Below are positions 18,066-36,200 of a stretch of 63,614 bases of DNA, piece by piece. Position 1 is the stretch's first letter. Each line of letters starts with the position of its first letter. A model generated the notes under the pieces. That model had not been told where the DNA came from. It saw only the letters and a program-made list of their open reading frames with translations, and made no database searches. Position numbers and translations under genes: made by a program. Source of the stretch: a virus (taxonomy: Duplodnaviria > Caudoviricetes); IMG/VR virus record IMGVR_UViG_3300028027_000062, positions 1 to 63,614 of that record, one strand, 5' to 3'.

Positions 18066-21000
18066 ATGGAAGGAGTAAATAGTTTTGAGAAAGGGTTACA
18101 TAGGACTAATAGTCCTGTAGAACAACCAGAAGGTAGCTATGTAGATGCCCTTAACTGGATTAGAAATGATAGTGGTAGATTAGTTAATGAAGAAATGGAA
18201 GAATATTTATTAAATCTTCCTGGTTATACCTTATTAGGAAATACTCCTGTTAATGATTTATTTATATGTTTCTTTAAAACTCCATTAGGCTCAGAAATAG
18301 GTACTTTTAAAAAAGGTAATTATCTTAGTGTTTATAAAGACTCTGACTATAATTTACAATTAAACTTTAAAAATGAAATAGATTGTGTAGCTAGAGTAAA
18401 TAGTAAAGGAGAAATTATAGTATACTTTGTAGAAGAAGATAATCCTATTAGAAGATTTAATTTAAATACTCCAACAGAATATACTACATTAGATGATTTT
18501 GAGTTACAACTTAGTTTTGATATTCCTATAATAAGACCAGTTGATGTAAGTATTGATAATGATGGTAACTTACCTACAGGAGTTTATTCCATAGTTCTTA
18601 GATATAGAACTTCTCAAAACAATGCTTCTGCTTTTGGTATACCTACTAGATTTTATTCTATTGCTAAAGGAGCTAATGTAATTAAAGATAACTATGAAGG
18701 AGGAGATCCCCAATCACCTTCTTCTAAATCTATTAAGTTTACACCTACTCATTTAGATCCTAACTATCCATATATTGAACCAGTTATAATTACTTATGAA
18801 GGAATTACTAGTGTACTTGTTGCAAGAAGTTTAGGAGTTTATTCTAATACTTCAAAACAAATAGTATTTTCTGATGTATCTCAATATCAAGATGTAGTTG
18901 ATATAAGTTTAATATCTCAAAATCCTCTTTTTTATACTAGTGCTAAAAGCATAGAACAAAAAGATAATATACTTGTTCTTTCTAATCTTACTACTAAAAA
19001 GTATGATAGAGAGTTTCAACAAATAGCTAATAATATTGATGTATCTGTTTATGCAATTAATTATGCACAAACATTTGATTTTACCTTATCTGATTCTGTT
19101 CCTTTTAACGAGACTGAACTTAATAAAACAATTAATGTAGATATAACTTCACAAGAAACCGACTCTCCTTATAGAAATACATTAATAAAAAAAGGATTTA
19201 AAAGAGGAGAAAGATATTCTTTATCTATTACTCCAATATACAAAGACGGTAGTATAGGATTTGCTTACCACATTCCAGCAAAAAACAATCCTAGCAAACC
19301 AGATTTAACTACTGCATGGATTTCACAACAAAAATATCCTGATTATTTATTAAATGATTCAACTTTTCCTTATAATACTATTAATGATAATAGTGTAGAT
19401 GCAGGTAAAATAAGACATCACCAAATACCTGATGTAGATACTTATCCTTTATATAGTATTAATAGACAAGTTGATTTAGTTGTTCTTCAATTAGAACTTA
19501 CTAACATTAATTTTGGAAATCAAGCTCAATTTATACAAGGTTATATTATAGGGTTTCAACCTAGAAATAACTCTGCTAATACTCACATTGTTACAGAAGG
19601 TATTAATAGACCTTATATGCATAATGGTAATTTTAAAAAATTACCATTTTTTAATGGAGCTTGTAAATTTATATTTGAGGGTGGAGCAATAATGAAAATT
19701 GATGCTCAACCTCCAACAAATACTAATGATAACCCTAATGATAATGACCGTGATGGTAAAATAGGTTTTAATTTTTTTTCACCAGATTTTATTCATGGTA
19801 AAACTCCATATGGTAATAAATTTCAAAAACTTGGGTATTATAACGGAGATTATTTTTTTACATACACTAGGTTTAGTAGCGATGGAGATTCAAGACTTGC
19901 TGGTGCACATATAGCAGCTGCCCCATTTAATTTTATTTATCAAGGAACTCCTACTGTAGGTATTTCTAATATAATTGAAGTACCTCAAACATCACCTTCT
20001 TCTTTTGTTAGTACTAAATATGAAGTAACTGGTACAAAAGGATATACTCATATTGAATTACAAGATGGGATATATGGTAATTTTTCTGAATTTGAAGACG
20101 TCCCCAATGATTATAATCTTTTTTCTTTTGAGGGAGATTCAGATCCCAATACTGGGTTATATCAAAAACCTTCTAAATTAAATTTATCTATATGCAGATT
20201 AATAAATTCTGCTGAATTTCAGTATGGTAGATTAGAAAATGCAGATTATGTAATCTCAGAAACTAGTGTAAATCCTAATCAAACTTCAATTGTTATTGAA
20301 GGAGATACTTATGTTCAAAGATACTTCTATGATATATATGATAGAATTAATAATAATTTTACTGGTACAGGATTAAGTTCAGGTGCAGAAGTTCCATATG
20401 AATTTAGAATGTTAGCAGGTGTACTTATAGAATCTACTAATAATTATACTTTAAAACATAATAATGAAGATGAAGTACCATACTATCCTAAAGAAAAAGC
20501 TCTTTATAGAACAAGTGTACCACCATTAGGACTCTTTAATATAGATTATACTAAAGGTTATTCTAATGGATATAATAAACAATACTCTGCTATTAATAAC
20601 ACTAAAGTTACTGTATCTACACCTTTGTTATTTGAGGAGACTACTCAGTTTCCTAATAGAAGTGTATACTCAGAACAATCTTTTGAGAGTGAGTTAACAG
20701 ATCAGTATAGAATAATACCTCCTAATAACTTTCATGATATTCCTAAAGATAGAGGCCCTATTACAGATACTTTTGTATTTGGTAATAACTTCTTTCATCA
20801 TACAGAGTTTTGTTTATGGCAATCATACTTTAATCCTAATACTATTCAAAGTACTTCTCAAGGAGATGTAGTACTTGGTAATGCAGGAGTATTTAGAATA
20901 CCTTCTAAACCTATTATAGATATTAAAGGAGGTTACATGGGGACATTTGATAAAAGTGGAACTAATACCCCATTTGGTAGAGTATTCTTAGATCATCATC

Positions 21001-21797
21001 AAGGTAAAGTATTCTTATTTGCAGGTGAAGCTCCAGTAGAAATATCAGATTTAGGACTCTTTCCATTCTTTAGAGAGTTTGTAAATACTATTGATAAATA
21101 TTCTATGGGATATGATTGGGCTAATAAGAGATTATTAATTTCAAGAATTGGTAATAAAGCTATCTCCTTTTACCCTAAAACTCAAACATGGACATCATTA
21201 CATTCTTTTGCTCCTACAGCTTACTTAAGTTTAAATAGAGAAACTTATGCTTGGCAAGATACTCAGAACTCTTTCTACAACTTAACTAATCCAACTGGAA
21301 CTAGAAAGAATTCTTATATAACTTTTGTAGAGAATACTCAACCTGATGCATTTAAAAGGTTTGATAGAATAGAGATAAATACTATGTCAGGTGGTAATAC
21401 TCAAGGTATCTTTGATCCAGGTTCTATTGCTAATGCAGCTAATTATGATTTTAAAAATCAATCTTTTAGTAAAATTCATTGTTGGACAGATAGACAAAAC
21501 AGTACTGAGTTAGTATTTGCTTATCCTACTGATTTTAATACTAACTTTTTAAGTAATTATGATCCTACTAAAGTAACTGTTAATTATTATAAAGGTTCTT
21601 TTCATGCTGAACTTCCATTAGATGCAGTTATAGATCCCTATGCTAATATATTTGATACTATTAATAATACAGACATTACTGCAAGTTTTAGAGCACATAT
21701 GAAGGCTAAGTTTCTATATACCAAGCTGTCGTATAATGATACTGATCCTTTAGTATTAAACTATGTTAAAACTTACTTTAAACCTACTGTAGCATAA
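18066..21797 (+). CDS. Tail stabilization / muzzle protein
   Basis: 1243 aa. NSFEKGL..., YVDALN, KDNILVLSNL, GFKRGERY and WTSLHSF; follows the tail tube gene. Confidence 0.85.
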   Translation: MEGVNSFEKGLHRTNSPVEQPEGSYVDALNWIRNDSGRLVNEEMEEYLLNLPGYTLLGNTPVNDLFICFFKTPLGSEIGTFKKGNYLSVYKDSDYNLQLNFKNEIDCVARVNSKGEIIVYFVEEDNPIRRFNLNTPTEYTTLDDFELQLSFDIPIIRPVDVSIDNDGNLPTGVYSIVLRYRTSQNNASAFGIPTRFYSIAKGANVIKDNYEGGDPQSPSSKSIKFTPTHLDPNYPYIEPVIITYEGITSVLVARSLGVYSNTSKQIVFSDVSQYQDVVDISLISQNPLFYTSAKSIEQKDNILVLSNLTTKKYDREFQQIANNIDVSVYAINYAQTFDFTLSDSVPFNETELNKTINVDITSQETDSPYRNTLIKKGFKRGERYSLSITPIYKDGSIGFAYHIPAKNNPSKPDLTTAWISQQKYPDYLLNDSTFPYNTINDNSVDAGKIRHHQIPDVDTYPLYSINRQVDLVVLQLELTNINFGNQAQFIQGYIIGFQPRNNSANTHIVTEGINRPYMHNGNFKKLPFFNGACKFIFEGGAIMKIDAQPPTNTNDNPNDNDRDGKIGFNFFSPDFIHGKTPYGNKFQKLGYYNGDYFFTYTRFSSDGDSRLAGAHIAAAPFNFIYQGTPTVGISNIIEVPQTSPSSFVSTKYEVTGTKGYTHIELQDGIYGNFSEFEDVPNDYNLFSFEGDSDPNTGLYQKPSKLNLSICRLINSAEFQYGRLENADYVISETSVNPNQTSIVIEGDTYVQRYFYDIYDRINNNFTGTGLSSGAEVPYEFRMLAGVLIESTNNYTLKHNNEDEVPYYPKEKALYRTSVPPLGLFNIDYTKGYSNGYNKQYSAINNTKVTVSTPLLFEETTQFPNRSVYSEQSFESELTDQYRIIPPNNFHDIPKDRGPITDTFVFGNNFFHHTEFCLWQSYFNPNTIQSTSQGDVVLGNAGVFRIPSKPIIDIKGGYMGTFDKSGTNTPFGRVFLDHHQGKVFLFAGEAPVEISDLGLFPFFREFVNTIDKYSMGYDWANKRLLISRIGNKAISFYPKTQTWTSLHSFAPTAYLSLNRETYAWQDTQNSFYNLTNPTGTRKNSYITFVENTQPDAFKRFDRIEINTMSGGNTQGIFDPGSIANAANYDFKNQSFSKIHCWTDRQNSTELVFAYPTDFNTNFLSNYDPTKVTVNYYKGSFHAELPLDAVIDPYANIFDTINNTDITASFRAHMKAKFLYTKLSYNDTDPLVLNYVKTYFKPTVA
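21730..21736 (+). promoter_or_regulatory. CGTATAA element
   Basis: 60 nt before ATG 21797. Confidence 0.55.
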
Positions 21798-23611
21798 TGA
21801 AAAATAAAAGAAAATATAAATTCAATAGTGGTATTCAAAGAATAGAAATGGATACTCCAGACTACAGTAAAGCTTATAATTTACAAGCTGAGCAGAATGC
21901 TAAAAGACAAGGTATAACTCAAGCTGCAGGATCATTCTCAGGAGCATACAAGCCTATTGCTGATGTTGGTAGTATGGCAGGTAATGTTATTAGAAGTAAT
22001 AACAAGAGTCAAGGAGGAGCTGTTGCAGGAGGTGCTGTAGAGATGGGAGCAACTGGTGCTGCATTAGGTATGCAAGTAGGAGGTCCAATAGGAGCTGCTA
22101 TAGGTGCAGGAGCAGGAGCAATTTATGGAGGTGTTGCAGGAAGTAGAGAATATAAGAAAGGTAAGTTATTACAAGAGCAAGCTGAGAGAGATACAGCCTT
22201 AGTTAATGCTAATAAGAAGTTTAAAGAAACTTCTAATACATCTGCTCAATCTTACTTAGCTAAGAAAGGTAAGTATAAACTTAGAACTGGAACTTCTACA
22301 ATTAAACAACCTAGAATGATTGAAACTGAAGGTAGAGAACCTATCTTTTCTCCTGAGAAAGCTGATGGTACTAGAGATCTTCTTTACTATAATCCTGATG
22401 ACCCTACTCATGCAGAAGGTGGAGTGAAAGCTATGGTTATGCCTAAAGCTCAACTTGGTAAAAAAAGTACTATGGCGCAGTCTGCATCAACCTCTGTTGC
22501 AAGACCTATTGCTCCAAAAATTAGTACAAAGTTTAAACCAATTCTTAAAGCAGAAAATAAAGCTTTAGAACAAGATATTACTAATAAAGATAGATCTTTA
22601 AAAAATTATAAAAAAGTTTTAACAAAAAGACAAAACTTTTTAAATGCTGACAAAGAACAAAATAATTTGCGTTCTGAGTTAGATGATTATAAAAAAGGAA
22701 TGTCTCCATTTAAAAAATGGGAAGGTTTAAATTTTAACTCTATTAATGATTTTTTAGAAACAGCAGTTGGAAGAGAAAAAGATATGAAACCAGTTGAGAG
22801 ACAGAATATAACAAGAAAGTCTCTTGAAGAGTGGAAGAAAAAAAACTTACAAGAAGATCCTTTAGAAGATGTTGTAGAAATATTTGATAGATATGGTGTT
22901 AGTTCATGGGATGATGTTAGAAGAAGTCAAATAGAGCAGGAAAGAAAAATAAAAGAAAATCCTAATGTAAAACCTGATGTATTAAACAATTTGCTTGAAG
23001 TAGCAACAGCTTTACCAGGAGGTAGATATATTCCTTTTAAAGGAACAACTAATGTATTAAAAAAAATTTTAGGTAAAAGTAAAAAAGCTTTAGATATAGG
23101 GGAAAAAGTATTTACTCCTACAATTGGAACTTTAAATAAAGTTAAAAAATATGGTAAAAAGTATTCTCAAAAAGCGTTAAATGCTATTGATGAATTTTCT
23201 GATTATGGTACTTTAGCACAAATGTATGACAAGTTTATAGCAGGAGATAAAAAATCTAATAGATCTATTAAAGATCTTATACAAGAAAAAGCTTATGGAG
23301 CTAAACAACTAAAAGTTAATACTCTTAATAATGCTGCATTATCTAGTAATATTACTGGCATGCCTGCTGCTAATGCTGCTAATAAGTTTATACAACCTAT
23401 GGCTGGTATATCTCAAGTAGCTAGAAATATTCCGGAGGTAAGAAAAAAAGAAAAAATTAATACTTCTAGATCTCATAAAAAAACTGTAGGTCCTGTTAAA
23501 ACAGTTGAACCTCCTATGTTGTATGAGATGAAACCTCCTCCACCTAAGAGTACTTACAATACTAAGAATGATTTTAATAAAGGCTCTAAAAAAGTTAAAG
23601 TATATAAATGA
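21797..23611 (+). CDS. Cargo/ejection protein with a glycine zipper plus accessory modules
   Basis: GAALGMQVGGPIGAAIGAGAGAIYGG zipper, ETEGRE...THAEGGV segment, SSWDD module, several xxG motif copies. Confidence 0.75.
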   Translation: MKNKRKYKFNSGIQRIEMDTPDYSKAYNLQAEQNAKRQGITQAAGSFSGAYKPIADVGSMAGNVIRSNNKSQGGAVAGGAVEMGATGAALGMQVGGPIGAAIGAGAGAIYGGVAGSREYKKGKLLQEQAERDTALVNANKKFKETSNTSAQSYLAKKGKYKLRTGTSTIKQPRMIETEGREPIFSPEKADGTRDLLYYNPDDPTHAEGGVKAMVMPKAQLGKKSTMAQSASTSVARPIAPKISTKFKPILKAENKALEQDITNKDRSLKNYKKVLTKRQNFLNADKEQNNLRSELDDYKKGMSPFKKWEGLNFNSINDFLETAVGREKDMKPVERQNITRKSLEEWKKKNLQEDPLEDVVEIFDRYGVSSWDDVRRSQIEQERKIKENPNVKPDVLNNLLEVATALPGGRYIPFKGTTNVLKKILGKSKKALDIGEKVFTPTIGTLNKVKKYGKKYSQKALNAIDEFSDYGTLAQMYDKFIAGDKKSNRSIKDLIQEKAYGAKQLKVNTLNNAALSSNITGMPAANAANKFIQPMAGISQVARNIPEVRKKEKINTSRSHKKTVGPVKTVEPPMLYEMKPPPPKSTYNTKNDFNKGSKKVKVYK

Positions 23612-25944
23612 AACTAGTAAATAAAACAGGATACTTAAAAGGAGCTAAGACTGCTAAAAATCCAGTCAACATTATTCCTTCTAGCCTTATTACTACACAA
23701 GGTATGGCATTTCCTATTAAGGCTAATGGTAAAACTTTATATCCTAATACTGGTCAATATAAGTTTCCTTCATCTCCTGTAATTGAGACTCCTCTTAAAA
23801 AGAAAAATCAATTAGATACTTCAAATATAGGACCTACTATTGATAAAGCTAATTTATTAAAAAGTAAGACTAATAATAACTCTCCTAAACTTGGAAATGC
23901 TTTTTTTGCTAAACCAAAACCTTTTACATGGAAACCTCCAAAAAATGTAGCAGAATTTGAAAAAAATAAAAGAATAGATTCTAATAAAGCAGCATCAAAT
24001 AGATTTAGGAAAAAAGATACATTAGAAGATAATATTGCAGAACTTTTAGATATTACTGGAGCTTCATCTTGGGATGATATACAAAGAAACATTGAAAAAG
24101 AAGGATTTACTCCAGAAACATATTTAGAAATAGCAGGTGCTATACCATTACTTGGAAGAATACCTAAATTAATTAAAGGGAAAAAACTTATTAGTCAAAT
24201 AGCAAGAACTGCTATAAAAGGAACAGAAATGCTTGAAAAGGGTTCAAATGCTCCTGAGCTATATGAATCCTATCAAGATGGTACTAATGAGTTAGTACCT
24301 AATAAAATGAGCAAAACATCTCTTTCTAAAGCTCAAGAGGTTGCATATCAAAGATGGATGAAGTCTAAAGGTTACAATGAATCTGATGATTATGATATGA
24401 GAGGATATTGGAAAAAACAAGGATTTAAAAATCTTGGTTCACCAAAAGGAGGTGAACATTTTACTGATGAATTTAAAAGGCTTGCACCATTCTCAGAAGG
24501 AGATAATTATCCTACACTTTCTGATGAAAGTAATAAAGCTTCTAAGTTTGATAAAAGAGGTCAAGGTACTTGGGTAGGAGAAGGTGATAATGCTAAATAT
24601 GTTAATTATCAAAAAGGTACTAATAAATTAATAGGAAAATTAGAAGCTATCAAAAAAGTTTATAATAAAGTTGAACCTTATGTATCTAAAACATATGATA
24701 AAGGTTTTAATTTTTTAAAAGAAAATATTCCATTTGTTGATAAATTTTTACCTTCTAAAAAACCTGTTTTAAAAAAACCAAAACCTAGTAATACTTTTAA
24801 AAGAACTGGTTCTGAAACTAATGAACAATTAGCAAGGTTTATTGCCAATAAAGTTGATGTACCTCAATCAGTAAATAAAGCTGATCTAGAAAGTCTTATA
24901 AAAAAACAATTAGATAGAGTTGATGGAGAAGAGTATGTTTCTAGAAGAATGGCTACAACTAAAGAAACAAAAGAAGAAATTGCATCTACTGTAAAAACTT
25001 GGAAAGATAATTTAGCAGATAAAACAAATTATAATACATATTCTGATATTAAAACTCCAGGAGAATATACCAAATGGAAAAATAAAGATTATGTTAATGT
25101 TAGTGGAGATGTTTTTGATAAAGAACCTGATAAATTTTTAGATGTATTTGAACATGAATTTTTACATGGTTTATCTCCAACTTTAAAACAAGAAAAGCTT
25201 TATAGAAATTATCCTAAATTAAATGTAACTCCAGAAAGAACTATAAAACAAAAAACAAAAGATTTATTTAGTGGTAAACAAAAAAAATTAAATTATTTTA
25301 ATGATGTATCAGAACAGCAAGTTAGAGCTGTTAGAATGAATGATAAAATAAAAAAAGATTTACAGATTGATAATCAAAATAAATTATCTAAAGATAATTT
25401 AGATAAATGGTTTGATGAACATTACAATACAAATTCAGAAACTTTAGATAAAACCGGATTTGTAGATGTTACTAATCTATTAGATTATAATGCAGCAGCT
25501 CAAAAATCAAGAGGTGTGTTAGCTCCTAATGGTAGACCTGAAGTTTTAGATTGGCTTAATAAAGCATGGATGATTCCTGCTGTTGGTGCAACTGGAACTG
25601 CAGCAGTTAATTCTACTACACAAGAAAAAAAGAATGGTGTTAAAACTCTTAAATATAAAAAAGGCAGTAAAGGAGTATCCTTAGCTTTTAGTAGAGGAGA
25701 GAAAGATCCTAAAGGTGGACTTACTCAGAAAGGTGTAGACAAGTATAATAGAGCTACTGGTGGTAACTTAAAGATGGCTGTTACTACACCTCCTTCTAAA
25801 CTTAAAGCAGGTAGTAAAGCTGCTAATAGAAGGAAATCCTTCTGTAGTCGAATGAAAGGTATGAAATCTAAATTAACTTCTGCTAAAACTGCAAATGATC
25901 CTAATAGTAGAATTAATAAAAGCTTAAGGAAATGGAATTGCTAA
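23608..25944 (+). CDS. Mosaic multi-module protein (SSWDD module, DYDMRG module, HEXXH zincin, DUF6321-like C-terminus)
   Basis: Modules are separated by YQDGT, YQKGT and YKKGS. HEFLH at 25153. C-terminus GGLTQKG...RRKSFCSRM...LRKWNC. Confidence 0.75.
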   Translation: MKLVNKTGYLKGAKTAKNPVNIIPSSLITTQGMAFPIKANGKTLYPNTGQYKFPSSPVIETPLKKKNQLDTSNIGPTIDKANLLKSKTNNNSPKLGNAFFAKPKPFTWKPPKNVAEFEKNKRIDSNKAASNRFRKKDTLEDNIAELLDITGASSWDDIQRNIEKEGFTPETYLEIAGAIPLLGRIPKLIKGKKLISQIARTAIKGTEMLEKGSNAPELYESYQDGTNELVPNKMSKTSLSKAQEVAYQRWMKSKGYNESDDYDMRGYWKKQGFKNLGSPKGGEHFTDEFKRLAPFSEGDNYPTLSDESNKASKFDKRGQGTWVGEGDNAKYVNYQKGTNKLIGKLEAIKKVYNKVEPYVSKTYDKGFNFLKENIPFVDKFLPSKKPVLKKPKPSNTFKRTGSETNEQLARFIANKVDVPQSVNKADLESLIKKQLDRVDGEEYVSRRMATTKETKEEIASTVKTWKDNLADKTNYNTYSDIKTPGEYTKWKNKDYVNVSGDVFDKEPDKFLDVFEHEFLHGLSPTLKQEKLYRNYPKLNVTPERTIKQKTKDLFSGKQKKLNYFNDVSEQQVRAVRMNDKIKKDLQIDNQNKLSKDNLDKWFDEHYNTNSETLDKTGFVDVTNLLDYNAAAQKSRGVLAPNGRPEVLDWLNKAWMIPAVGATGTAAVNSTTQEKKNGVKTLKYKKGSKGVSLAFSRGEKDPKGGLTQKGVDKYNRATGGNLKMAVTTPPSKLKAGSKAANRRKSFCSRMKGMKSKLTSAKTANDPNSRINKSLRKWNC

Positions 25945-25949
25945 ATTTG
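25942..25949 (+). promoter_or_regulatory. Possible -7 promoter element (TAAATTTG) for the HNH gene
   Basis: TAnnTTTG 5 nt before ATG 25955. Confidence 0.4.
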
Positions 25950-25954
25950 CAAAT

Positions 25955-26563
25955 ATGGAATATACACTTAAGCATTGTACTCTTTGTGATTTAGATATAA
26001 CTGAAGATTTTGTAAAATCTTTTAAACCAAAAGATTATGGAAGTCTTCATGGTTTTTGTAGAAGTTGTAGAAAGAAATTAAGAAATCTACAATTAAAAGT
26101 AGGAGGTAAAGTTTGTTCTAAATGTTCAGTAGATAAACCATTTGGGGACTTTCCTGTGCATAAAAAAACTTATGATGGTTTTGATAGTTGGTGTAAACAA
26201 TGTAGAAAAGAATATAGCTATGAAGTTAATCAATCGTTAGATACACATTTAAGAAAAAAATTAGCTTCTATAAAAGAAGATAGAAGAAAAATATTTTCAG
26301 ATTTAACTCTTGAACAGTTAGTTAGTTTATGGAATAAACAGGAGGGTAAATGTGCTATAAGTGGTGTAGAAATGTCTTATCAAAGAAATAAAAGACAACA
26401 TAATATGAATAATTGTAGTGTAGATAGAATTGATAGTTCTGGTAATTATACTATAGACAATATACAACTTGTATGTTGGATTGTTAATAGAATGAAAGGT
26501 GAAAATACTACAGAAGATTTAATTCAATGGTGTAATCATATAATAAATAAACAAAACTTTTAA
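25955..26563 (+). CDS. HNH-type homing endonuclease with CxxC zinc-finger repeats
   Basis: Two CxxC...CxxC repeats, then Q.GKCAISG, SVDRIDSSGNYTIDNIQLVC..VN.MK. Confidence 0.85.
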   Translation: MEYTLKHCTLCDLDITEDFVKSFKPKDYGSLHGFCRSCRKKLRNLQLKVGGKVCSKCSVDKPFGDFPVHKKTYDGFDSWCKQCRKEYSYEVNQSLDTHLRKKLASIKEDRRKIFSDLTLEQLVSLWNKQEGKCAISGVEMSYQRNKRQHNMNNCSVDRIDSSGNYTIDNIQLVCWIVNRMKGENTTEDLIQWCNHIINKQNF

Positions 26564-26579
26564 AACGTAAAATAAAGAT

Positions 26580-26984
26580 ATGAAATTTAAAATGGGTGGT
26601 TCTGGTATACACATTAAGCCAGAGAATAAAGGAAAGTTTACAGCTACTAAAAAAGCTACTGGTAAGACTACTGAGGAACTAACTCATAGTAAGAATCCAG
26701 TTACTAAGAAGAGAGCTATCTTTGCTCAAAATGCTGCTAAGTGGAAACATGAAGATGGGAATAAATCTATAAAAGTAGATAAAAAGATGTGTGGTTCTAA
26801 AGGTATGAAGTATGCTGAGGGGACTAAGAGTATTAAGTTTAAAAAGAAAGAGATGATTAAGAGAGCTGATGGTTCTACTTCTCAAAGAGGTTTATGGGAT
26901 AACATTAGAGCTAATAAAGGTTCTGGTAAAAAACCTACTCCTGAGATGCTTAAACAAGAAAGAAAAATTAAAGCAGGTAAGTAA
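26580..26984 (+). CDS. Small basic two-module protein
   Basis: GIHIKPENKGKFT...FAQNAAKWKH module and MIKRADGS..RGLWDNIR module, linked by xxG motifs. Preceded by CGTAAAA at 26566. Confidence 0.8.
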   Translation: MKFKMGGSGIHIKPENKGKFTATKKATGKTTEELTHSKNPVTKKRAIFAQNAAKWKHEDGNKSIKVDKKMCGSKGMKYAEGTKSIKFKKKEMIKRADGSTSQRGLWDNIRANKGSGKKPTPEMLKQERKIKAGK

Positions 26985-28573
26985 TGAAATATGTATCTGG
27001 TGCTAAAAGCGTAAAACAATATAGAGGGGATGAGAATCTTCCAGAAGCTAAAAATGGTATGAAAAACTGTGGATGTAAACACCCTAAAAGTAAATATAGA
27101 TATGGTACTAATGCATTAGCTATTCCAGAAGGTTCTGCTATTGTTACTGCTAATGATGGTAAAAATATACAAGCTCTTAAAGCTTATAAGAAAGGTAACT
27201 ATAAACTTTTAAATAAGATTATAGATGATATGCCTGAAGATAATGTTGATAATAAAGCTCAAGATGGTAAAAGAGCTACTAAAGGTAAAAAAATTACAGG
27301 CAAAATTCAAGATAAACAAGTTGCTCCTAATGAAACTTTTAGCGAAGAATCTGCACTTGGGTATGATCCAAGTTATGGTCAAGAAATGAATGAAGATAAA
27401 GCTAAAGAACTTTATGGTTTAAGTTTGTCAGATTTAATTAAAAAAAGAAATACAGGGCAACTTCCTAAAGTTAGTTTTGATTTAGAAGTAGAAAGAAGAA
27501 ATGCTGTAGCTAATAATCAAGAAGAATTTACATATAAAGGTAAACTTTATCTTTCTGGATTAAAAAAACAAAATACTAAAGGTGGTACTACCCCTACACC
27601 AAATACAGTACCGATACCCCCTGCTAAAACTCCTCCAGAAGATGAATATGAGGATGTTGATACAGATACTATTAAAGCTGAAAAGCCTATAATGTCAACT
27701 GGTGAAACTAATGCTATTGGAGGAGTAATTGGACAAGGAGTTCCTAAAGGACCAAGAGAATCTTATCTAAAGTTAGATAGATATAATTATGCTTCTCAAC
27801 TTCCTAAAACTTTACAAGAAATTGCTCTTGCTGAACAGGGAGGTAAAAATACTGCTAGAGATATTGTAGGAGGAGATGCTGGTAGATATCTTGCACAAGC
27901 AGGTTCTTTATCTGGTGCTAGAATGAAAGCTAATAATGAAGCTGTTATTAATGATACTCTTGCTAGACAAGATATTCTTAATAAGAATGTGGATCTTTCT
28001 AATACTGAAGCAACTACTAATAGAAGTCTTAAAGATTATTATGATGATATTAAAAGACAAAATGTTAATGACTATAATGCACTTTTAGTTAAGGGAGGAC
28101 AATCATTTGATGAAAGTTTTGATAACTATCAAAAAATGAAAAGTGAAAATGAATTAAAAGCTCAAGAACTTCAGTTACTTAAAGAAGCTAGTCCTAACTA
28201 TACTATGGTTAAAGATCCTAAAACAGGAGTAATGAAATCTGTTTATAGGTATAAAAAAGTAAATAAAACTCCAGGAGCAACAACAACTGGAACAACAGCA
28301 CCAGCAACTACTGGAGCATCTTCTGCTAGTGCAGGTGCAACTCCTGTTGCTCCAACAAATTCTAGTGTAACTCCTGTTAATCCTAATGCAGCTCCAAGTA
28401 CTAACTCATTTAATACACAATTACAAAATTATGGAACTGAGGCTGGAAAATTACAAGAAAAACTAACACCTAAAGGTACTAAGTTTCAAAGCTTTTTTAA
28501 TAAATTAGAATTAGATCCTTTTGGTAGTAAAAAAGTAGGAACTAAAAAACTTAAAACATACAAGAGAAAATAA
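26984..28573 (+). CDS. Cargo/ejection protein
   Basis: 529 aa. Motif copies YVSGA, AKNGM, YRYGT, AQDGK and terminal KKVGT; helical Ala/Asn/Gln-rich core; Thr/Ala/Pro linker. Confidence 0.75.
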   Translation: MKYVSGAKSVKQYRGDENLPEAKNGMKNCGCKHPKSKYRYGTNALAIPEGSAIVTANDGKNIQALKAYKKGNYKLLNKIIDDMPEDNVDNKAQDGKRATKGKKITGKIQDKQVAPNETFSEESALGYDPSYGQEMNEDKAKELYGLSLSDLIKKRNTGQLPKVSFDLEVERRNAVANNQEEFTYKGKLYLSGLKKQNTKGGTTPTPNTVPIPPAKTPPEDEYEDVDTDTIKAEKPIMSTGETNAIGGVIGQGVPKGPRESYLKLDRYNYASQLPKTLQEIALAEQGGKNTARDIVGGDAGRYLAQAGSLSGARMKANNEAVINDTLARQDILNKNVDLSNTEATTNRSLKDYYDDIKRQNVNDYNALLVKGGQSFDESFDNYQKMKSENELKAQELQLLKEASPNYTMVKDPKTGVMKSVYRYKKVNKTPGATTTGTTAPATTGASSASAGATPVAPTNSSVTPVNPNAAPSTNSFNTQLQNYGTEAGKLQEKLTPKGTKFQSFFNKLELDPFGSKKVGTKKLKTYKRK

Positions 28574-28574
28574 T

Positions 28575-30221
28575 ATGGCAACTAATCCAGTATTGAATAT
28601 TCCAATTAGGCAAAGACAAAGTACTAATGTACCATTGCCTTTTGCAGAAATGTATGCTGTTCTTCAAGATAAACAGAAAAGGTATGATGATGCTGAAAAG
28701 TATGAAAGAGAACAGAAATTACAAATTTCTAAATTATCTTCTCCAATTGTAGGTTATAATAATTATTTAACTCAAAAGAAACAACAGTTTTTAGATGATG
28801 CTTTAAAACTACACTCTAGTGTACCTGACAAAGGAACTTCAGAATATCAAAGAAAATTAAATAACCTTATAGATGGATGGAGTATGGACCCTAATATCCA
28901 AACTATTGATAAATCCAATCAACAATGGTCTGAAAGATTAGACATAATGAAACAATTAATTACTACTGGTAAATATTCTGCTAATCAAGATATAGATAAA
29001 GATTTTACAGGAGTAGATGCAAATGGTAATATTATGCAGTATACCTTTTTAGGTGTAAAACCTAAACCAGATTATATGGCTGCACTTAAGAATTCTGCAG
29101 AACTTGTTCTACCAGACAATAGAGTAAGCTCATATGTTGATAGAAAAAAAAATAAAAAAATTACTACAACATATACAGGTAAAGACCCTTCCAAAATAGA
29201 AAATGAAATAAAAGCAGCAATAACTCCTGAGATGAAGAGTGAAATTATGTATGATCATAAACTTCCAAATGATAAAGCTTATGATATGTGGATAAAAGCA
29301 CAAGCTAATGGTTTATCTAATCCTAATGTTTCTAAAGTAGAAGAAGAAGACTTTACTGCGGCAACTTTTGATTTACATAGACAACAACTAGAATTACAAA
29401 AACAAGAACTTGCTTTAGAAAAACAAAAAGCTGCAGCTGCTGCCGGTGGTGTTTTTTCAGGTACAGAAACATCCTCTGTTAATGTCCCAAGTACTGGATG
29501 GACTGAGAGTGCAGCTAGTAGTATTAATGATGATGGTACTATTAACCCTGGGTTTTGGGGTAATGAAGAAAGTGTTAAAGAAGATAATCCTATTCTAGTG
29601 GATATTGCAAAAAATAATATTCTTACTAATGCTTGGAGAAAGAAGAATGGTCTTGCACTAATACCTTTAGAAGAAATGTATAAGAGGTATAAAAATTCTG
29701 CATATCAAGCTGTAGCTAAAACTTATGTTAATACTAATAGTAAAGATATTGATGATGCTTATGATCTTCTTATGACAAGAAAAGGAGATGCAGAAATATG
29801 GGATATTACTAGTGGACAAGCTAATAAACTTGTAGAAGAAGATGATAGAAAAGCAGCTCTTATTGCATTTGATAATCCAGATAAAAAAGTTGGTAAATCA
29901 TCTTTCTCAGGAAAATTTGATCCTGCTAATCCTTATGGTCCTAGAGCATATGAGGTAACTGTTGGTGATAAAAAATATGTACTCTCAATTCCAACAACTG
30001 CAGATTATCAAGGAGCAATGGCTTCACAAGAAAATAAAGTATATAAAGGTTTTAGTAATTACAGTCCTGTAACTTTTAATCCTGGAGAATATCAAGAAGT
30101 AATTAGAACAAGTACTGGTGAGTTAAAACCAGGAAAAAGATATGATGTTCCTGTAGATGTTTACTTTCCTGATCCAGATAATATGTATAATAGAATAGTA
30201 GTTACTAAAAAGAAGAAATAA
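28575..30221 (+). CDS. Internal virion (cargo/ejection) protein
   Basis: PLPFAEM...QKRYD N-terminus; directly upstream of the giant RNAP gene. Confidence 0.7.
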   Translation: MATNPVLNIPIRQRQSTNVPLPFAEMYAVLQDKQKRYDDAEKYEREQKLQISKLSSPIVGYNNYLTQKKQQFLDDALKLHSSVPDKGTSEYQRKLNNLIDGWSMDPNIQTIDKSNQQWSERLDIMKQLITTGKYSANQDIDKDFTGVDANGNIMQYTFLGVKPKPDYMAALKNSAELVLPDNRVSSYVDRKKNKKITTTYTGKDPSKIENEIKAAITPEMKSEIMYDHKLPNDKAYDMWIKAQANGLSNPNVSKVEEEDFTAATFDLHRQQLELQKQELALEKQKAAAAAGGVFSGTETSSVNVPSTGWTESAASSINDDGTINPGFWGNEESVKEDNPILVDIAKNNILTNAWRKKNGLALIPLEEMYKRYKNSAYQAVAKTYVNTNSKDIDDAYDLLMTRKGDAEIWDITSGQANKLVEEDDRKAALIAFDNPDKKVGKSSFSGKFDPANPYGPRAYEVTVGDKKYVLSIPTTADYQGAMASQENKVYKGFSNYSPVTFNPGEYQEVIRTSTGELKPGKRYDVPVDVYFPDPDNMYNRIVVTKKKK

Positions 30222-30238: not shown

Positions 30239-33200
30239 ATGAAAAAAATAGAAGAAAACACTCCAAATATTATGTTTGGAAGTACTCCCGTTAGAAGTAC
30301 TCCAGTAAACCCTATTGGATTTGGTTCTTCAAGATCCAAATATGATTTTAACTTAAATAGTAATCTTGAAGAACAAAGAGCTGCTAATCAAGGTTTTTGG
30401 GATTCTGCAGGAAATATAACTCTTAGATTAGTAGGAAGAGCAGGTATGTCTGCTTTAGAGACTGGAGCAATGCTTGGTTATGGATTACCTAAGGCTATTG
30501 TAACAGGAGATTTAAATTCTGTTTTTGATAATGAATTAACTGATGGCTTTAAAAAATTAGATAAAGTTCTTACTGATAATTCTCCATTTTATCAAAGTGA
30601 AGCTGAAAGAAAAGCTCCTTTATTTTCAAAAACATATCTTACTTCTACAAACTTTTGGGGTAACTTGATTGGTGAAGGTGGTGGATTTGTTGCAGGTGCA
30701 ATGCTTGGTGGAGGAATGATTGGTAAAACAATGGGAACTGCTAATAGATTAGCTAAATCTGCAGGAATTATTGCTAGTGATGGTGAGAAAATAGCTGAAG
30801 TAGCTAGTGCAATTAAAAGTCAAGGAAATATTCTTGATAAATTCTTAAACCTTGCTAAAAGTACTTCTGCTAAAAATGCCTCTCAATATTATACTCAAAA
30901 AATTGGAGGAAATATGTATGAAGCTGGTGTAGAAGCTAGAGGTATTAAAGATGAAATTATTAGACAAAAAGAAGAAAAATTTAGAAAAGACAATCCTGAT
31001 GTAATTATTCCTGAGTATTTAAAAGCTGAGTGGGAAAATATGGCATCTACCTATGCTAATGTAGGGTTTGGATTAAATATGGCTCTTCTTATGATTGATG
31101 GTTTCAATATGAGTAAATTCTTTAAAGGATATACTTCTACAAATAGAACTGTTAATGCTTTAAAAAAAGGAGGACAATATATTGAGAAAGGTAAATATGG
31201 AAGATTTGCTGATGCAACAAAAGCTTTCTTAGGAGGTCCTCTCTCAGAAGCAGCACAGGAAGGTGGACAGTTTCTTACTGAAAAAACTCTTTCTGATATT
31301 GCATCAAAAGATACTCAAAATTCTAAACAAAGTTTTAATGATTATTTCATGTCTACTATGAAAGGTCTTGAGGAAACTTTTGGTAGTAAAGAAGGTCAGG
31401 AGTCTATGCTTGCAGGGTTTTTATTAGGAGCTCCTTTTAATATTAGACAAGCTATTGAGACAGGAAAACTTGATAGAGAAGGTATTAATGCTTTACAAAA
31501 GTTTTCTGGGAATACTGTGTTTAAGAATACTCTTAAACTTAATATGGAAGCCTATGATAAAAATGTAGGTGCTGAAAAAGATGAAGCAGCTTTAAATAAT
31601 TCTAAACTTCTTCATGAAAATATTAAAAGAAGTGAGTGGTTTGCATATGTTAAAAATAGAGATGATGCTGGTAGATTTGATGATGTACTAGATGATATTT
31701 ATAGAGAAAAAACTATGCCTCTTGATGTATTTAAACAAGTACATGGGGATCATTTTACAGAAGAAAAAAGACAACTTACTCTTAATGAACTTGAGAAACA
31801 AGCTAAATATTATAAAACTGTAAGTGATACAGTTAATAGTTCTTTTACCTCACACCCTAATAAAGATGCTTTAATTCAAACTTCTGTAAATATTAATAAC
31901 TACTCAGAAAGAATTGCTGAACTACAAGGAAAATTAACTAATACAAAACTTCCTTCAATTGTTAGAGATCAACTTAAAACAGATTTAGAAACTTTATTGC
32001 AAACAAGAGCTGCAGAAGAAATTAAACTTTCTAATTATCTTACAATGAAAGAAATGCAATCTTCTGAAGCTATTCCTCAAGATAAAAATACTAGTATTGA
32101 AAAAGTTTCAGTTGATGGTATTGAAGGAGTTATTGAAAGAAGAAATGAGAGTACTGAAGACAATCCTGAACCTTCTCTTGTAATTAGTACCTCAGCTGGA
32201 CAAATAACTGTTCCTGAGAAAGATTTAGATAATAATCTTTCTGATGAAGAAAATAATTTTGAAGAATCTGAGTATGATGATTTTGGAGGAGATATAACAC
32301 CTGATGTTGCTAAGAGTGAAGGTAAAGGTGCTAAATGGATGGTTCTTAATCCTAATGACCCTGAAGCAAACTGGATGAACTTTGGAGACATGGGTCTTAA
32401 AGATTATAGAGAACAAGCTAATAATATTTCTGAGAAAAATAAAGGTTCTGAGTTGCATAAATCTTTAATTCTAAATGCTGATAAAGCAGATGCTATTAAA
32501 GATGATATTATTGATAACAATACTGCTTATGATTTTATTTATAAAAAACAAATTATAAATGGAAAAACTCAATATAACATTTTTGCTAAAAAAGGTAATA
32601 CAGAAACTAAGATTGGTTATATATTAAATTTTGATACTACAAAAGCATCAATGAGTGATATGAGTATCAATGATTATTTGGATACTTATATGAAGGGGAC
32701 AACTCCTAATGTTGAGCAGAAAAAAGGAGTAATATCAAGAATTAGAAGTGCTGATCAAAAACTAAAATCTTCTAATACTGAGAATGTAAATAATGCTGTT
32801 ACCCTTGGAACTAGAATTAAAAATTCTGGAATTCCATCTACTCTTGCAAACGTACTTAGTAGTCCATTTAAGAACAGATGGATGGTTAATGGAGAACTTG
32901 TAATAGTTAAATATCAAAAAGGTAATTATGTACCTATTACTAAACTCTCAGATGAGAATAAAAAACTCCTTCTTGAGCAACTACAAAAACCATCTAATGC
33001 TGCTTTTCTTGGTAGTCAATATGCAGTCTTAGTTAAGAGACCTAGTAAAGATGAAAACCAATATTCTTTTATTGGATTTAGAGGTACAGAAATAAGTAAA
33101 TCAGAAAAAAATTCATTCATTAAAAAAATGAATGATCCTAATGTAGATAAGCAAACTCTTGTTAAAGAAATGAATGAGAGAATGTTTATTACCAGTAATA

Positions 33201-36200
33201 AAACATTTAGTGTTTATGATTCTAATGGTCAAAGAGTAGCTGATACACACTTATTTTTTGATACTGATTTTAAAGGTAATGTAGTTATTAGAAGAGAACC
33301 TAAACTAATTGATGGTGTAAAAAATCCTACTCAATTAGCAAGAAGACAAAGTAAAGCAATTACAGATCCAGATAGAATTGCATCTTATATTAATATGCAT
33401 GGTTATGAAAGAATTTCTGGAGAGAATGCTAATAGTATAGATTATGTAAGTGATAGAGTTCAAACTTTAGCAGATCCTTCTATATGGAGATCTTTCTTTA
33501 AATTTTCTCACAATATTTATGGAGAAAAACCAAAAAGTGTAAATAATACTTTTCCTTCTAATACTCCAACACAAGATGAAGAAACTGAAAAAGCTGCACA
33601 AGTTTATACTAAAAATGGAATAACTGCTAAAATTTATTCTAAATACACAGTTGAGGAAAAAGGTACTGAAGATAATAAATTTAATTTAGGATCAGTATCT
33701 TTTACAGCTACTCGCTCAGATAAACCTGATAATATTTTAGAAGGAGATTCTATAGGATATGTTTATGATGATGAGAGAGGAAACTATCTTAATAACTTTG
33801 TTGCAGATTATGATAAACTTCTTGAGGATGTTGTTGATGAACTCAATACTTCTGATAATAATATAAATTTAAATAAACTAACTGAGATAAGAGTTATAAG
33901 AGAATTTGGATATTTTAGCACTTCAGAAAATAAAAACATTCAGTATATTGATGTTGTTATAAGCGATAGTGATGGTAAATCAATAAAAGGTGCAGTCTCA
34001 ATTGAGAAAAGAAAGTTTCTTCCTTCAAGTATCTCACTTCCAAATACTACCAAATTTTCTCCAGCTATACAAAATAAAATTGATGAGATTAAAAAGAATG
34101 CATCTTTTATTGTCTTAGATAAAAGTAAAAAGTTTTATACAAATACTAAAACTGGAAAACAACTTAGAAGAGTTACAGATTTTATCTCTGATGAAGAAGA
34201 GTCTTCTGATTGGTTTGAGAGTGCTAGTACTATAGGTACAAAAAGTGATTTACTTGTAAGAGACTTTTTTGATAATAATCTTAGACCTCTCTCTAATTAT
34301 GATGTAGCTCCTGATAAAGAAATAAATACTTTTCTTTCTCAACTGGATACTTTAAGAAAATTTTTTGAGAAGAGTAATGAAACTGTTATTGCTAATGATA
34401 TTGTTCTTTATGATGAGAAGCTTGGAGTTGCTGGAACAGTAGATTTGCTTACTGTAGATTCTAATGGAAACTTTAGAATTTATGATATGAAGACAATGAG
34501 AGGAGATAATTTTATGACTCAAATTGTACCATATACTACTACAGATAAACAATTAAGTCCGGTAAGTAAGTATGAGTTTAAGGGTTATTATGATCAAGAT
34601 AAAGCTCAGTATATAAGAGATTTAAGTAAAGACTCTAAACTTGAGAAACATCAAAAACAACTATCTATGTATAGATTGTTATTGAATAATACTCATGGTA
34701 TACTTGCTAAAAGAATTGCTGTAATTCCTATTGAGGTTGATTATAATAAAGGAGATAGAAGTACTAAGAAACTTAATTTGTTACCTTTAAAAGATTTAGC
34801 TCCTATTGATAATATTAAGGATGCTGTTCTTACTCAACAAATTACTCCTTCTACTTCTCAAGAACTTCCTGTTAATCCTACACAAGGTACTGCTCCAGCA
34901 ACTGATTTTTTTAATAATCTTCCTTCTGATCCAGATACTCAAGTAAATCCATCTAGTGGATTTAAGCCAGGAGATGTTGATGATTATTTAGTAGATACTT
35001 ACTTTGAGGAAGTTAATAAAGAAATTAAACAAATTATTAATGTTGAAGTAAAACTTGAGGATATGAGGGATTCTATGGGAAGACCTCTAAACTATGGAAG
35101 ATTTGAGAATGCAGTAGTATATCTTGCTTCTAAAGCTCCTAAAGGTACATTATGGCATGAAGGATTTCACGCAGTATTTAGTATTCTTCCAGAGAATGAG
35201 AAGAGTAGAGTACTTAAGATTGCATTTGATAAGTTAGGTGTAACAGATCTTGATGTTCAAAATCTTAGAAAAATCTATGAAGAAAGGGGTTACCCAAATC
35301 TTACAGAAAAGTTTCTTGTAGAGAAAGCTCTTGAGGAAAAAATAGCAGATTTGTTTCAAGAACATATGAATGGTAGACCTACAACTATTCTTGGAAGATT
35401 CTTTAAAATGCTTGAAGATTTAATTAATTATCTTTTTGGTAAAACTAATGATCCTGTATTTAAAGCTTTCTTTAAAGAAATTGAGGGAGGTAAGTATAGA
35501 CATGTTAGTCCAACAGGAGAAGTCGTCTCATTTAAAACAATTCCTTATGCTACAAGTATTGAGAGTGATAAACTTATGAATTTACTTACAGCTCAATATT
35601 TAAATAGAAAATCTACAGATCCAGATTCTCTTTATGATTTTATTCAATCTAGATTAGATGATATTAGAAGAGGATATAATGTAAAAATTAGAAATGAGTA
35701 TGCAGATAAACTTTCTAATATTGAACAACAAAAAGAAAACAACTTTCTTTCTCAAGAAGATTATAATTCTGAAATTGGAAGATTACAATCAGAAATTAAT
35801 TCAAAGTACATTAATAAAGATGGATTAGTATATCCTAAATTTCTTGCTGAAAAATATGAGAAAAACATCATCAATCAAACTATTCAATATGCTGACTTTA
35901 AGAAAATTTATGAGGAGGGTAATGAGGATGATCAGGATGAAAGAACAAAAAGTTTCTCTGAGAGTGAGTTTGATAAAGCTGTACATGCTACTCCTGCTGG
36001 ACAAGCAGTTAAAGCAAAGTTTAAAACTATTATGATTGATGATCCCTATTTTAGGGAAATACCAATTAATACTTATGGTATTTTTAATAATCTTCTTTTT
36101 AACTTAAATGGAGTTAGTAAAGATGATATTGAGAGTAAACTTCAAAGTTTAGTATCTAATAGTGTTTTTGGTAGAAGTATAAAAGCTATTCTTGCAGAAT

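Follow-up and report, generated by a model that had tools for sequence, protein, structure and literature searches.

In crAss001, the cargo proteins C1 (gp45) and C2 (gp46) and the virion RNA polymerase are encoded at a single locus, and two segments of gp45, residues 214–245 and 425–552, have been resolved by cryo-electron microscopy (cryo-EM) (PMC10172136). A second described system of similar appearance is that of the polyvalent proteins, in which many unrelated small domains share one polypeptide that is probably delivered together with the DNA and evolves as a mosaic (PMC5512222). Here, we analysed a 63,614-base metagenomic IMG/VR contig of an uncultured marine crass-like phage, estimated to be 48% complete and referred to below as the window, whose region 21797–28573 encodes a string of small modules separated by a recurring peptide, YxxG[TS][KN]x[LIV], which we call the joint. 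All window features named below lie on the plus strand. What is this string? We see an even chance that it represents the clade's C1-type ejection protein, split into four genes (gp21797, gp23608, gp26580 and gp26984) and enlarged, with the joint serving as a disordered element between modules that would be read by a common factor.

The position of the four genes is that of C1. They follow the crassvirus muzzle gene with which the cargo block starts (18066–21797; Pfam PF25731, crAss_MUZ, E = 3.3e-36), and they precede gp28575 (548 amino acids (aa), 28575–30221) in the place of C2 and gp30239 (30239–42448), a 4,069-aa open reading frame (ORF), in the place of the virion RNA polymerase polyprotein; crAss001 has the same order. 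The original prediction, made from the letters of the DNA alone, had recognized crassvirus cargo territory here, and we agree. The polymerase assignment is by position, with no Pfam match to the 4,069-aa ORF at E ≤ 0.01, and direct BLAST of gp28575 against crAss001 gp46 was not significant.

Homology leads from the window to gp45 through intermediates. By phmmer, residues 159–220 of gp21797 (604 aa, 21797–23611) match residues 294–356 of a 667-aa database protein, P0052, while residues 18–119 and 287–418 of gp26984 (529 aa, 26984–28573) match residues 337–439 and 526–653 of the same protein. The pieces of gp21797 and gp26984 thus lie next to each other in one chain, which implies that the separate genes of the window are parts of one protein elsewhere, gp21797, which was also aligned with relatives, being its N-terminal and gp26984 its C-terminal piece. 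Everything between PTHAEGGVKAMV in gp21797 and IPEGSAIVTAN in gp26984 corresponds to a single joint in P0052. Similarly, residues 45–259 of gp21797 match residues 927–1139 of another protein, P0099, in a region that is also matched by residues 103–189 of gp45, and gp45 has modules in common with 71 of the 152 proteins of our set. The N-module of gp26580 (134 aa, 26580–26984) has one homologue within gp45 (at about aa 372–425), another within the 904-aa gp060 of IAS virus, encoded directly after the muzzle gene, and a further, stand-alone one after the portal gene of cr109_1, where KYKDGG precedes it. Co-folding of the two pieces that are adjacent in P0052 gave weak support, scoring 0.36 with 0.00 for the best of 3 controls; the mark is reached by 58 of 80 solved complexes and 2 of 110 mismatched pairs, but at 0.60 or under there are only 7 of the 80 complexes plus both of the passing mismatches. 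These runs used custom alignments, agreed in at least 71% of contacts and had partner predicted local distance difference test (pLDDT) values of at least 56.

The likeness to gp45 extends to its build: a Gly-rich hydrophobic N-terminal part, the homologue of the gp26580 N-module and, behind a GG, a basic tail. gp45 also carries joints of its own, being the only one among 29 structural and cargo coding sequences of crAss001 that is enriched in aromatic-GG sites (8 versus 3.6 expected; 3/300 shuffles), and its GG pairs at 209–210, 427–428 and 562–563 bracket the two segments given as resolved by cryo-EM in PMC10172136; further GG joints lie at 263–264 and 332–333. In contrast to gp45, the window version is spread over four genes, with a homing endonuclease gene inserted, and is ~2.4 times longer (2,045 versus 842 aa); its joints read G-[TSNA]-K rather than G-G; and gp45 lacks DUF6321, the HEXXH module and other modules of the window.

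How solid is the joint itself? In its strict form, [YF]..G[TSAN][KN].[LIVM], it occurs 8 times in five proteins, the four of the string and gp8889 (together 2,643 aa), and not once in the other 48 ORFs of the window (17,943 aa), while shuffles of the five proteins contained 0.14 copies on average and 2 at most, none of 2,000 reaching 8. The pattern as worded in the original prediction matched 10 times within the five proteins and once outside them, against a shuffle mean of 0.57 and again without any of 2,000 shuffles attaining the observed number. The core motif is therefore real in the five proteins named, the enrichment over composition-matched sequence that had been proposed as a check holds, and the peptides that had been listed are all present where they were said to be. 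Not so their count: "roughly 20 copies" is too many, because entries like AKKGK, AQLGK, AQDGK and AKNGMK fit only a loose pattern that occurs at chance level. To guard against choosing a pattern after the fact, all gapped patterns of three residues were enumerated. Y.KG ranked first in the five proteins (8 observed versus 0.94 expected; p = 6.5e-6, which lies above the Bonferroni limit of 6e-7), with Y..GT, Y..G.N, YQ.G and GT..L within the top 20, and in the cargo proteins of close relatives Y..GT came first (15 versus 1.66 expected, p = 3e-10) and KY..G second (20 versus 3.5), although these latter counts are not independent, being inflated by the shared ancestry of mutually homologous proteins. 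Could composition alone, or duplication of segments, have produced the motif? The proteins are indeed rich in Lys (12–24%) and Gly (6–10%), and the loosest copies are no more frequent than expected, but the shuffles never reach the observed counts, the modules on either side of the motif have no detectable homology to one another, and the motif recurs in relatives and in a wider family. This leaves chance a negligible probability and, in effect, refutes it.

The evidence that the joint marks the edges of modules comes from close relatives. A search with the muzzle protein led to six related loci, three of which (G001, G002 and G003; contigs 33–65% complete) include the downstream region; a search for related loci with gp23608 among viral contigs gave no relative, and neither did tblastn of gp26984 against phage records give a match. 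Portal proteins of the three are 91–97% identical to that of the window, yet their cargo genes are mosaic. The strict joint is concentrated in these genes too, with 5, 6 and 5 copies in the cargo of G001, G002 and G003 versus 1, 2 and 0 in all other ORFs or, pooled, 16 per 7,381 cargo aa versus 3 per 67,938 other aa.

One case is gp23608 (778 aa, 23608–25944), the five modules of which had been delineated in the original prediction and are upheld by tblastn and BLAST comparison with the relatives: an N-module (23608–23805); an SSWDD module (23806–24270), at whose right edge stands the joint YQDGTNEL (aa 222–229, 24271–24294); a DYDMRG module (24295–24606), followed by the joint YQKGTNKL (aa 334–341, 24607–24630); an HEXXH module (24790–25635); and, after the half-joint KKNGVKTL and the joint YKKGSKGV (aa 683–690, 25654–25677), a C-terminal DUF6321 module (25678–25941). 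G003 lacks the SSWDD module, its junction reading PLKKKGT/DELVPNK, and its homology to gp23608 stops at YQKGTNKL, a different module standing in place of the HEXXH module after YVNYQEGT. In G002, the N-terminal part of gp21797 is fused in frame and straight to DUF6321 at a joint (...YVKVY/AEGSKGVSLAF), in the very place where the window gene ends with the joint FNKGSKKV (aa 593–600, 23573–23596). Six more members of the gp23608 family from a large protein database (P0005–P0010) have the boundaries PLKQ.G[TSA], KKQ.GT and QEKKNGSKL.KYK.GSKSV, and a YKKGSKGV-type joint forms the left edge of DUF6321 in 10/10 close members, a count that leaves aside the distant P0011.

The other genes of the string tell the same story. 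gp26580 consists of a helical N-module (about aa 9–56), a stretch of joints (aa 57–85) holding HEDGNKSI, MCGSKGM and YAEGTKSI, and a C-module (about aa 88–132), and the last of its joints (aa 78–85, 26811–26834) is the site of an insertion in G003. Joints flank both sides of all three insertions in this family: a module following HDEGTKKL, an EF-hand-like FPDL[NT].DG..T.ADIL module that ends in G[ST]KSM, and a module between YQNGGKDL and FKEGTKSI. The EF-hand-like mini-module, which resembles a canonical EF-hand calcium loop (FPDLNKDGEITKADILKGRGVI), was seen in two related loci (L005 16613–17131 and L010 17972–18907) and in five database proteins (P0013–P0015, P0030 and P0034), and is absent from gp26580 of the window. 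gp26984 has joints at 26990–27013 (YVSGAKSV) and 27095–27118 (YRYGTNAL), then the IPEGSAIVTAN segment, a C-terminal domain and the tail KKVGTKKLKTYKRK at its end. In its family, too, a joint lies at a boundary in 3/3 events, namely an N-terminal extension of 257 aa, a 217-aa insertion between KYKYQ.G and YKYGTGAL, and, in the window, a C-terminal insertion that closes with KKVGTKKL. gp21797, finally, starts with a basic N-terminus with the degenerate joint KYKFNSG, continues with the Gly-rich hydrophobic stretch, the ETEGREPIFSP...PTHAEGGVKAMV segment and an SSWDD-type module, and closes with the C-terminal joint FNKGSKKVKVYK before its stop codon. In a cruder and less striking count, 21 of 78 BLAST breakpoints fell within 8 aa of a joint, where 7.9 were expected. 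Both the placement of the motif at module boundaries and the expectation that relatives would differ by gain, loss or exchange of modules at the motif were thus borne out, with insertions, the fusion, the SSWDD indel and the HEXXH swap all bounded by joints.

Is the joint then a feature of the peptide or of the DNA? The original prediction had raised the possibility that it doubles as a recombination joint. The microhomology of a shared nucleotide word would then drive the exchange of modules. For lambdoid phages, boundary sequences have been proposed to serve modular exchange in this way. The word TAT-N6-GGTACTAA indeed occurs exactly 4 times, at 9057, 24271, 24607 and 27095, as had been noted, with 0.05 occurrences expected from DNA shuffles; breakpoints do lie at joints; and homing endonucleases of the cassette could supply double-strand breaks. 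The recurrence of the word, however, follows from the peptide together with codon bias. At 45 joints of the four genomes, Gly is encoded by GGT 24, GGA 14, GGG 4 and GGC 3 times, which mirrors genome-wide usage (0.52, 0.39, 0.05 and 0.04, respectively); Lys is encoded by AAA 16 and by AAG 11 times; and Ser derives from TCT as well as from AGT and AGC, codon families that cannot be interconverted. Across the swap between gp23608 and its G003 counterpart the two sides differ at several bases inside the joint, and in the wider family the joint is defined as a peptide only. Selection acts on the joint peptide and not on the DNA, and a nucleotide-level origin is accordingly very improbable.

Two further observations concern the DNA of the cassette. 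The original prediction had described several modules as AAA-heavy and of lower GC; for four of the five genes this is so (G+C at third codon positions 0.07–0.13, AAA share of Lys codons 0.81–0.92, compared with averages of 0.183 and 0.65 over 32 other genes), but gp26580 shows the opposite, and with Mann-Whitney p values of 0.07 and 0.09 the difference of the cargo genes is only suggestive. Homing-type endonuclease genes sit within the cassette of the window (25955–26563) and of two related loci (L006 9893–10501 and L010 18910–19533). That of the window, an HNH/endonuclease VII-type gene that is inserted in the cassette but does not belong to the string (PHROG 1035, E = 2.5e-28), is nearly identical in G002, whereas in G003 a GIY-YIG-like ORF occupies another junction and G001 lacks such a gene. 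Such endonucleases may drive local gene conversion, recombination and mosaicism.

The joint of the window is a local dialect. The two modules of gp26580, for neither of which Pfam holds a family, have matches in 3,312 cluster representatives at E ≤ 1e-3, a number that falls to 1,590 at E ≤ 1e-10; the matching proteins measure 63 to 1,865 aa and hold the modules at any position. In the best-scoring 150 of the 3,312, [YFMWH]..GG is found 987 times, compared with 134 times in shuffles, and in 143/150 proteins, while the form used in the window, [YF]..G[TS], shows no enrichment (113 versus 93). Ends of high-scoring segment pairs lie within 6 aa of a joint in 41% of cases versus 13–14% for random positions and, once the query's own modules are masked, in 23.7% versus 8.8%. 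Joints are spaced by a median of 47 aa, with a side peak at 6–9 aa (113 of 844 spacings). Behind the N-module, the residue after the Gly of the joint is G in 115/119 proteins outside the window's clade, and N, S, T or A in 8/8 proteins inside it; counted over all joints, the clade has 12 of the GG and 54 of the G[TS] type, the others 754 and 124. From these comparisons, YxxG[TS][KN]x[LIV] is the clade-specific form of a wider aromatic-x-x-G-G joint, in which G-[TSNA]-K has replaced G-G in concert at positions without common homology. Gut crassviruses of presumably similar G+C retain GG. AT-driven drift was considered as a cause of the change and found unlikely, Gly to Thr taking two base changes. 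At the DNA level, 155 bases within the gp26580 N-module (window 26597–26754) are 70–81% identical to crassviruses of the human gut that represent at least two families (80.6% for IAS virus); beyond this stretch, the only other matches of the 6.8-kb query among phage records were those of DUF6321 to marine phages.

A switch of the joint throughout a clade points to co-evolution with a single reader. Might this extend to a universal joint grammar, in which one trans-acting reader, co-evolving with the joint, accepts any module flanked by joints, so that modules are delivered and exchanged as cassettes? Candidates for such a reader are a protease and a docking groove of the portal, the tail rings or the muzzle, and modules could move even between post-portal and post-muzzle loci and across crassvirus families. 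We put this forward as a tentative idea whose truth is doubtful.

The wider set also speaks to another role offered by the original prediction, that of a capsid-loading tag. Like the T4 capsid targeting sequence, each copy would then direct its protein or module into the procapsid. Copies do lie near the N-termini of all five window proteins and near three of their C-termini, and in 45/150 of the wider proteins a joint lies no more than 30 aa from the N-terminus. A single tag on each polypeptide would be enough, however, and yet joints stand at nearly every module boundary, mostly internal and repeated, unlike the single N-terminal tag of the T4 type. Joints are found upstream of 84 of 106 internal N-modules and downstream of 114/131 N-modules that are followed by at least 25 aa, but behind only 1/11 that end their protein, and 20 of 41 N-terminal N-modules start without one. 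Moreover, the polymerase polyprotein, as the main expected cargo, has no strict copy and gp28575 none at all; in crAss001, where C1 alone stood out, there are 0 sites in C2 and in gp49, and gp47 shows no enrichment. Because the joint vanishes where no segment follows and the expected cargo is without the strict motif, a general loading tag is unlikely, and we hold this proposal to be improbable.

Are the joints, instead, sites of maturation cleavage? The strings would then be polyproteins, and a phage or host protease would cut between G and [GTS] to release the mini-modules, one candidate being the zincin-like HExxH domain of the polymerase polyprotein; fusion and fission of genes at joints would in that case be neutral. 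Several features fit: joints lie between modules and go missing after a terminal one; the same module exists as a stand-alone protein of 63–88 aa and inside proteins of >1,500 aa; 21/41 N-terminal N-modules retain a short unconserved leader plus joint; genes are fused and split at joints; and the clade-wide change suggests a single reader. The 4,069-aa ORF has two HExxH sites, one of which (WHEGFH, aa 1640) is kept in the 3,903–4,712-aa orthologues of G001–G003, such that WHE[AG]FH is common to the polymerase polyproteins of all four genomes. Internal head proteins are cut at short motifs by T4 gp21 (L/I-x-E) and phiKZ gp175 (S/A/G-x-E), which we count in favour of cleavage, and virion core proteins are matured after the second Gly of (M/I/L)xGGx in adenovirus and after the Gly of AGx in vaccinia virus. 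In these systems, too, one motif recurs in several internal virion proteins, with a small residue after the Gly. Processing by zincin peptidases has been predicted for polyvalent proteins, which often carry a zincin-like HExxH domain (PMC5512222), and crAss-like polymerase polyproteins were predicted to be likely cleaved (bioRxiv 10.1101/2020.03.07.982082).

Other findings weigh against cleavage. The joint differs from the motifs of those systems in that neither the capsid protein nor the polymerase cargo contains it, and no protease has been identified here: Pfam found no protease gene among the 18 of 53 window ORFs scanned, in a window that covers ~48% of the genome. Joints 6–9 aa apart would yield octapeptides. 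The HEXXH module of gp23608 was considered as a dedicated joint protease but not favoured, since it is missing from the contigs, 33–65% complete, of three relatives that keep their joints. In crAss001, at least one joint has been modelled intact, as the portal-bound segment of gp45 was built from A425 with its own F-G-G joint included, which is weakly against cutting (PMC10172136); C1 has been interpreted as one chain spanning tail and capsid (PMC10172136; review PMC10136315); and the word stem "cleav" does not occur in the main text of PMC10172136. In the literature searched, neither a described joint motif nor processing of cargo was found. On balance, we judge cleavage unlikely, albeit with enough in its favour to be taken seriously.

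We thus return to the reading of the string as a C1-type ejection protein. Here, a C1-type string would have been broken into four translationally abutting genes, with extra mini-modules added, and the joint would be an uncleaved hinge or docking element that has one common reader, possibly the portal or tail channel. The chain would lie extended in storage and be threaded out one module at a time. Base 21797 belongs both to the muzzle stop and to the gp21797 start, gp21797 and gp23608 have 4 bases in common (23608–23611), and gp26580 and gp26984 have 1 (26984); cargo genes that abut or overlap by 1–4 bases suggest coupled translation of the pieces. Given joints that lack structure and resemble one another, in-frame recombinants with their breaks at these sites should survive, which would make the string a plug-in scaffold. 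In AlphaFold2 models, gp26580 has pLDDT values of 75–88 at aa 11–50 and <50 at aa 60–82, and joints are below 50 in this model as well as in that of gp23608, which is weak evidence that they lie in stretches predicted to be disordered.

A number of points count against this reading. Low pLDDT may stem from alignments with few rows (11 and 38) and need not mean true disorder. The link from the window to C1 is transitive and positional, as BLAST of gp21797 and gp26984 to gp45 was non-significant (E = 0.20 and 0.26). More than two thirds of the BLAST breakpoints (57/78) lie away from joints, and the left edge of the HEXXH module is without one. The best 150 proteins were picked by homology to two modules that are themselves flanked by joints and are hence not a random sample, and a simple hinge leaves the tandem joints 6–9 aa apart unexplained. 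Lastly, both the reader of the joint and its uncleaved state are our inference, for a phage known here from sequence.

What do the modules do? At E ≤ 0.1, Pfam recognized DUF6321 alone in the five motif proteins (PF19846; gp23608 aa 698–776, 77 bits versus a gathering cut-off of 28.5, E = 1.8e-21) and no known effector domain, LPD domain or peptidase; a literature search for DUF6321 found nothing. By sequence, the modules have the status of candidate effectors. The HEXXH module (HEFLH at aa 516) weakly resembles zincin peptidases in its predicted structure: VIA-align of the gp23608 model (aa 389–658) returned PPEP-2 (Z 4.5, root-mean-square deviation (rmsd) 3.7, 128 residues aligned), PPEP-3 (Z 4.2, rmsd 4.8, 145 aligned), PepO (Z 4.1, rmsd 4.7, 162 aligned) and anthrax lethal factor (Z 4.1, rmsd 4.8, 157 aligned), all below the trust level of Z 8 and from a full-length model that is poor (mean pLDDT 45.7), so that these fold matches are weak. 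Foldseek with the gp26580 model found no match in the PDB at E ≤ 0.001, the best having E = 3.9.

With five modules, gp23608 falls within the 2 to 15 distinct domains per polypeptide that characterize polyvalent proteins. Their named domains were not found here by Pfam, however, DUF6321 (function unassigned) apart, and no conserved joint peptide was found described in PMC5512222, from which the words "linker" and "crAss" are absent. Closer in content are the beads-on-a-string proteins of cyanophages and pelagiphages such as gp123 of Synechococcus phage Bellamy, which are likewise multi-module, basic, encoded in the structural region and terminated by DUF6321; the DUF6321 domain of gp23608 is 57–73% identical to those of pelagiphage, P-TIM68 cyanophage and marine-virus proteins. 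Unlike the window proteins, they have no YxxG[TS] joint, with AWQRKEGK or AAWTKKAGK preceding DUF6321. Two such loci, that of Bellamy gp123 (L002 1058–2914) and one of a marine single-cell virus (L004 1242–4504), encode strings of very conserved basic modules without YxxG[TS], among them an ACYHKVKSRY..WPSAYASG module, a CVSS.KRASM module and DUF6321. In the gut crassvirus cr109_1 (L029 4257–6169), the annotated post-portal genes have in-frame stops under translation table 11, consistent with stop-codon recoding; among their products are the stand-alone N-module protein, a small "zincin superfamily protease" and a protein that combines a YADGGKI joint with HEMTH.

Upstream in the window, Pfam identifies the crassvirus major capsid protein (gp11770, E = 1.2e-96) and the tail ring proteins 1, 2 and 3/4 (gp17208, gp16228 and gp14190, respectively). 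After the portal gene lies gp8889 (8889–10685), the Lys-rich fifth motif protein, with joints at aa 9, 57 (9057–9080) and 66 and the C-terminus KFYGTGK. As phmmer gave 0 matches between gp8889 and the C1-type set, it would belong with the string through the motif alone. Together with its G001–G003 orthologues it ranges from 496 to 1,032 aa, despite the near-identical portals, and a double joint (KPYKKGTNLIKYQQGN) is kept near the N-terminus; scaffold-like and cargo functions are candidate roles.

Crassviruses are among the most abundant phages of the gut and the sea, and how they store and eject their protein cargo is an open question. The joint rule would allow C1-type genes to be annotated even if split or highly divergent, accounts for the limits of the gp45 segments resolved by cryo-EM, and predicts where foreign modules may be inserted. 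The clade-wide change of the joint, in turn, offers a route to its reader, as a virion protein or protease that co-varies with the type of joint. And should the joints be cleavage sites after all, crassvirus cargo would be a polyprotein system, of which we found no report in the literature searched.

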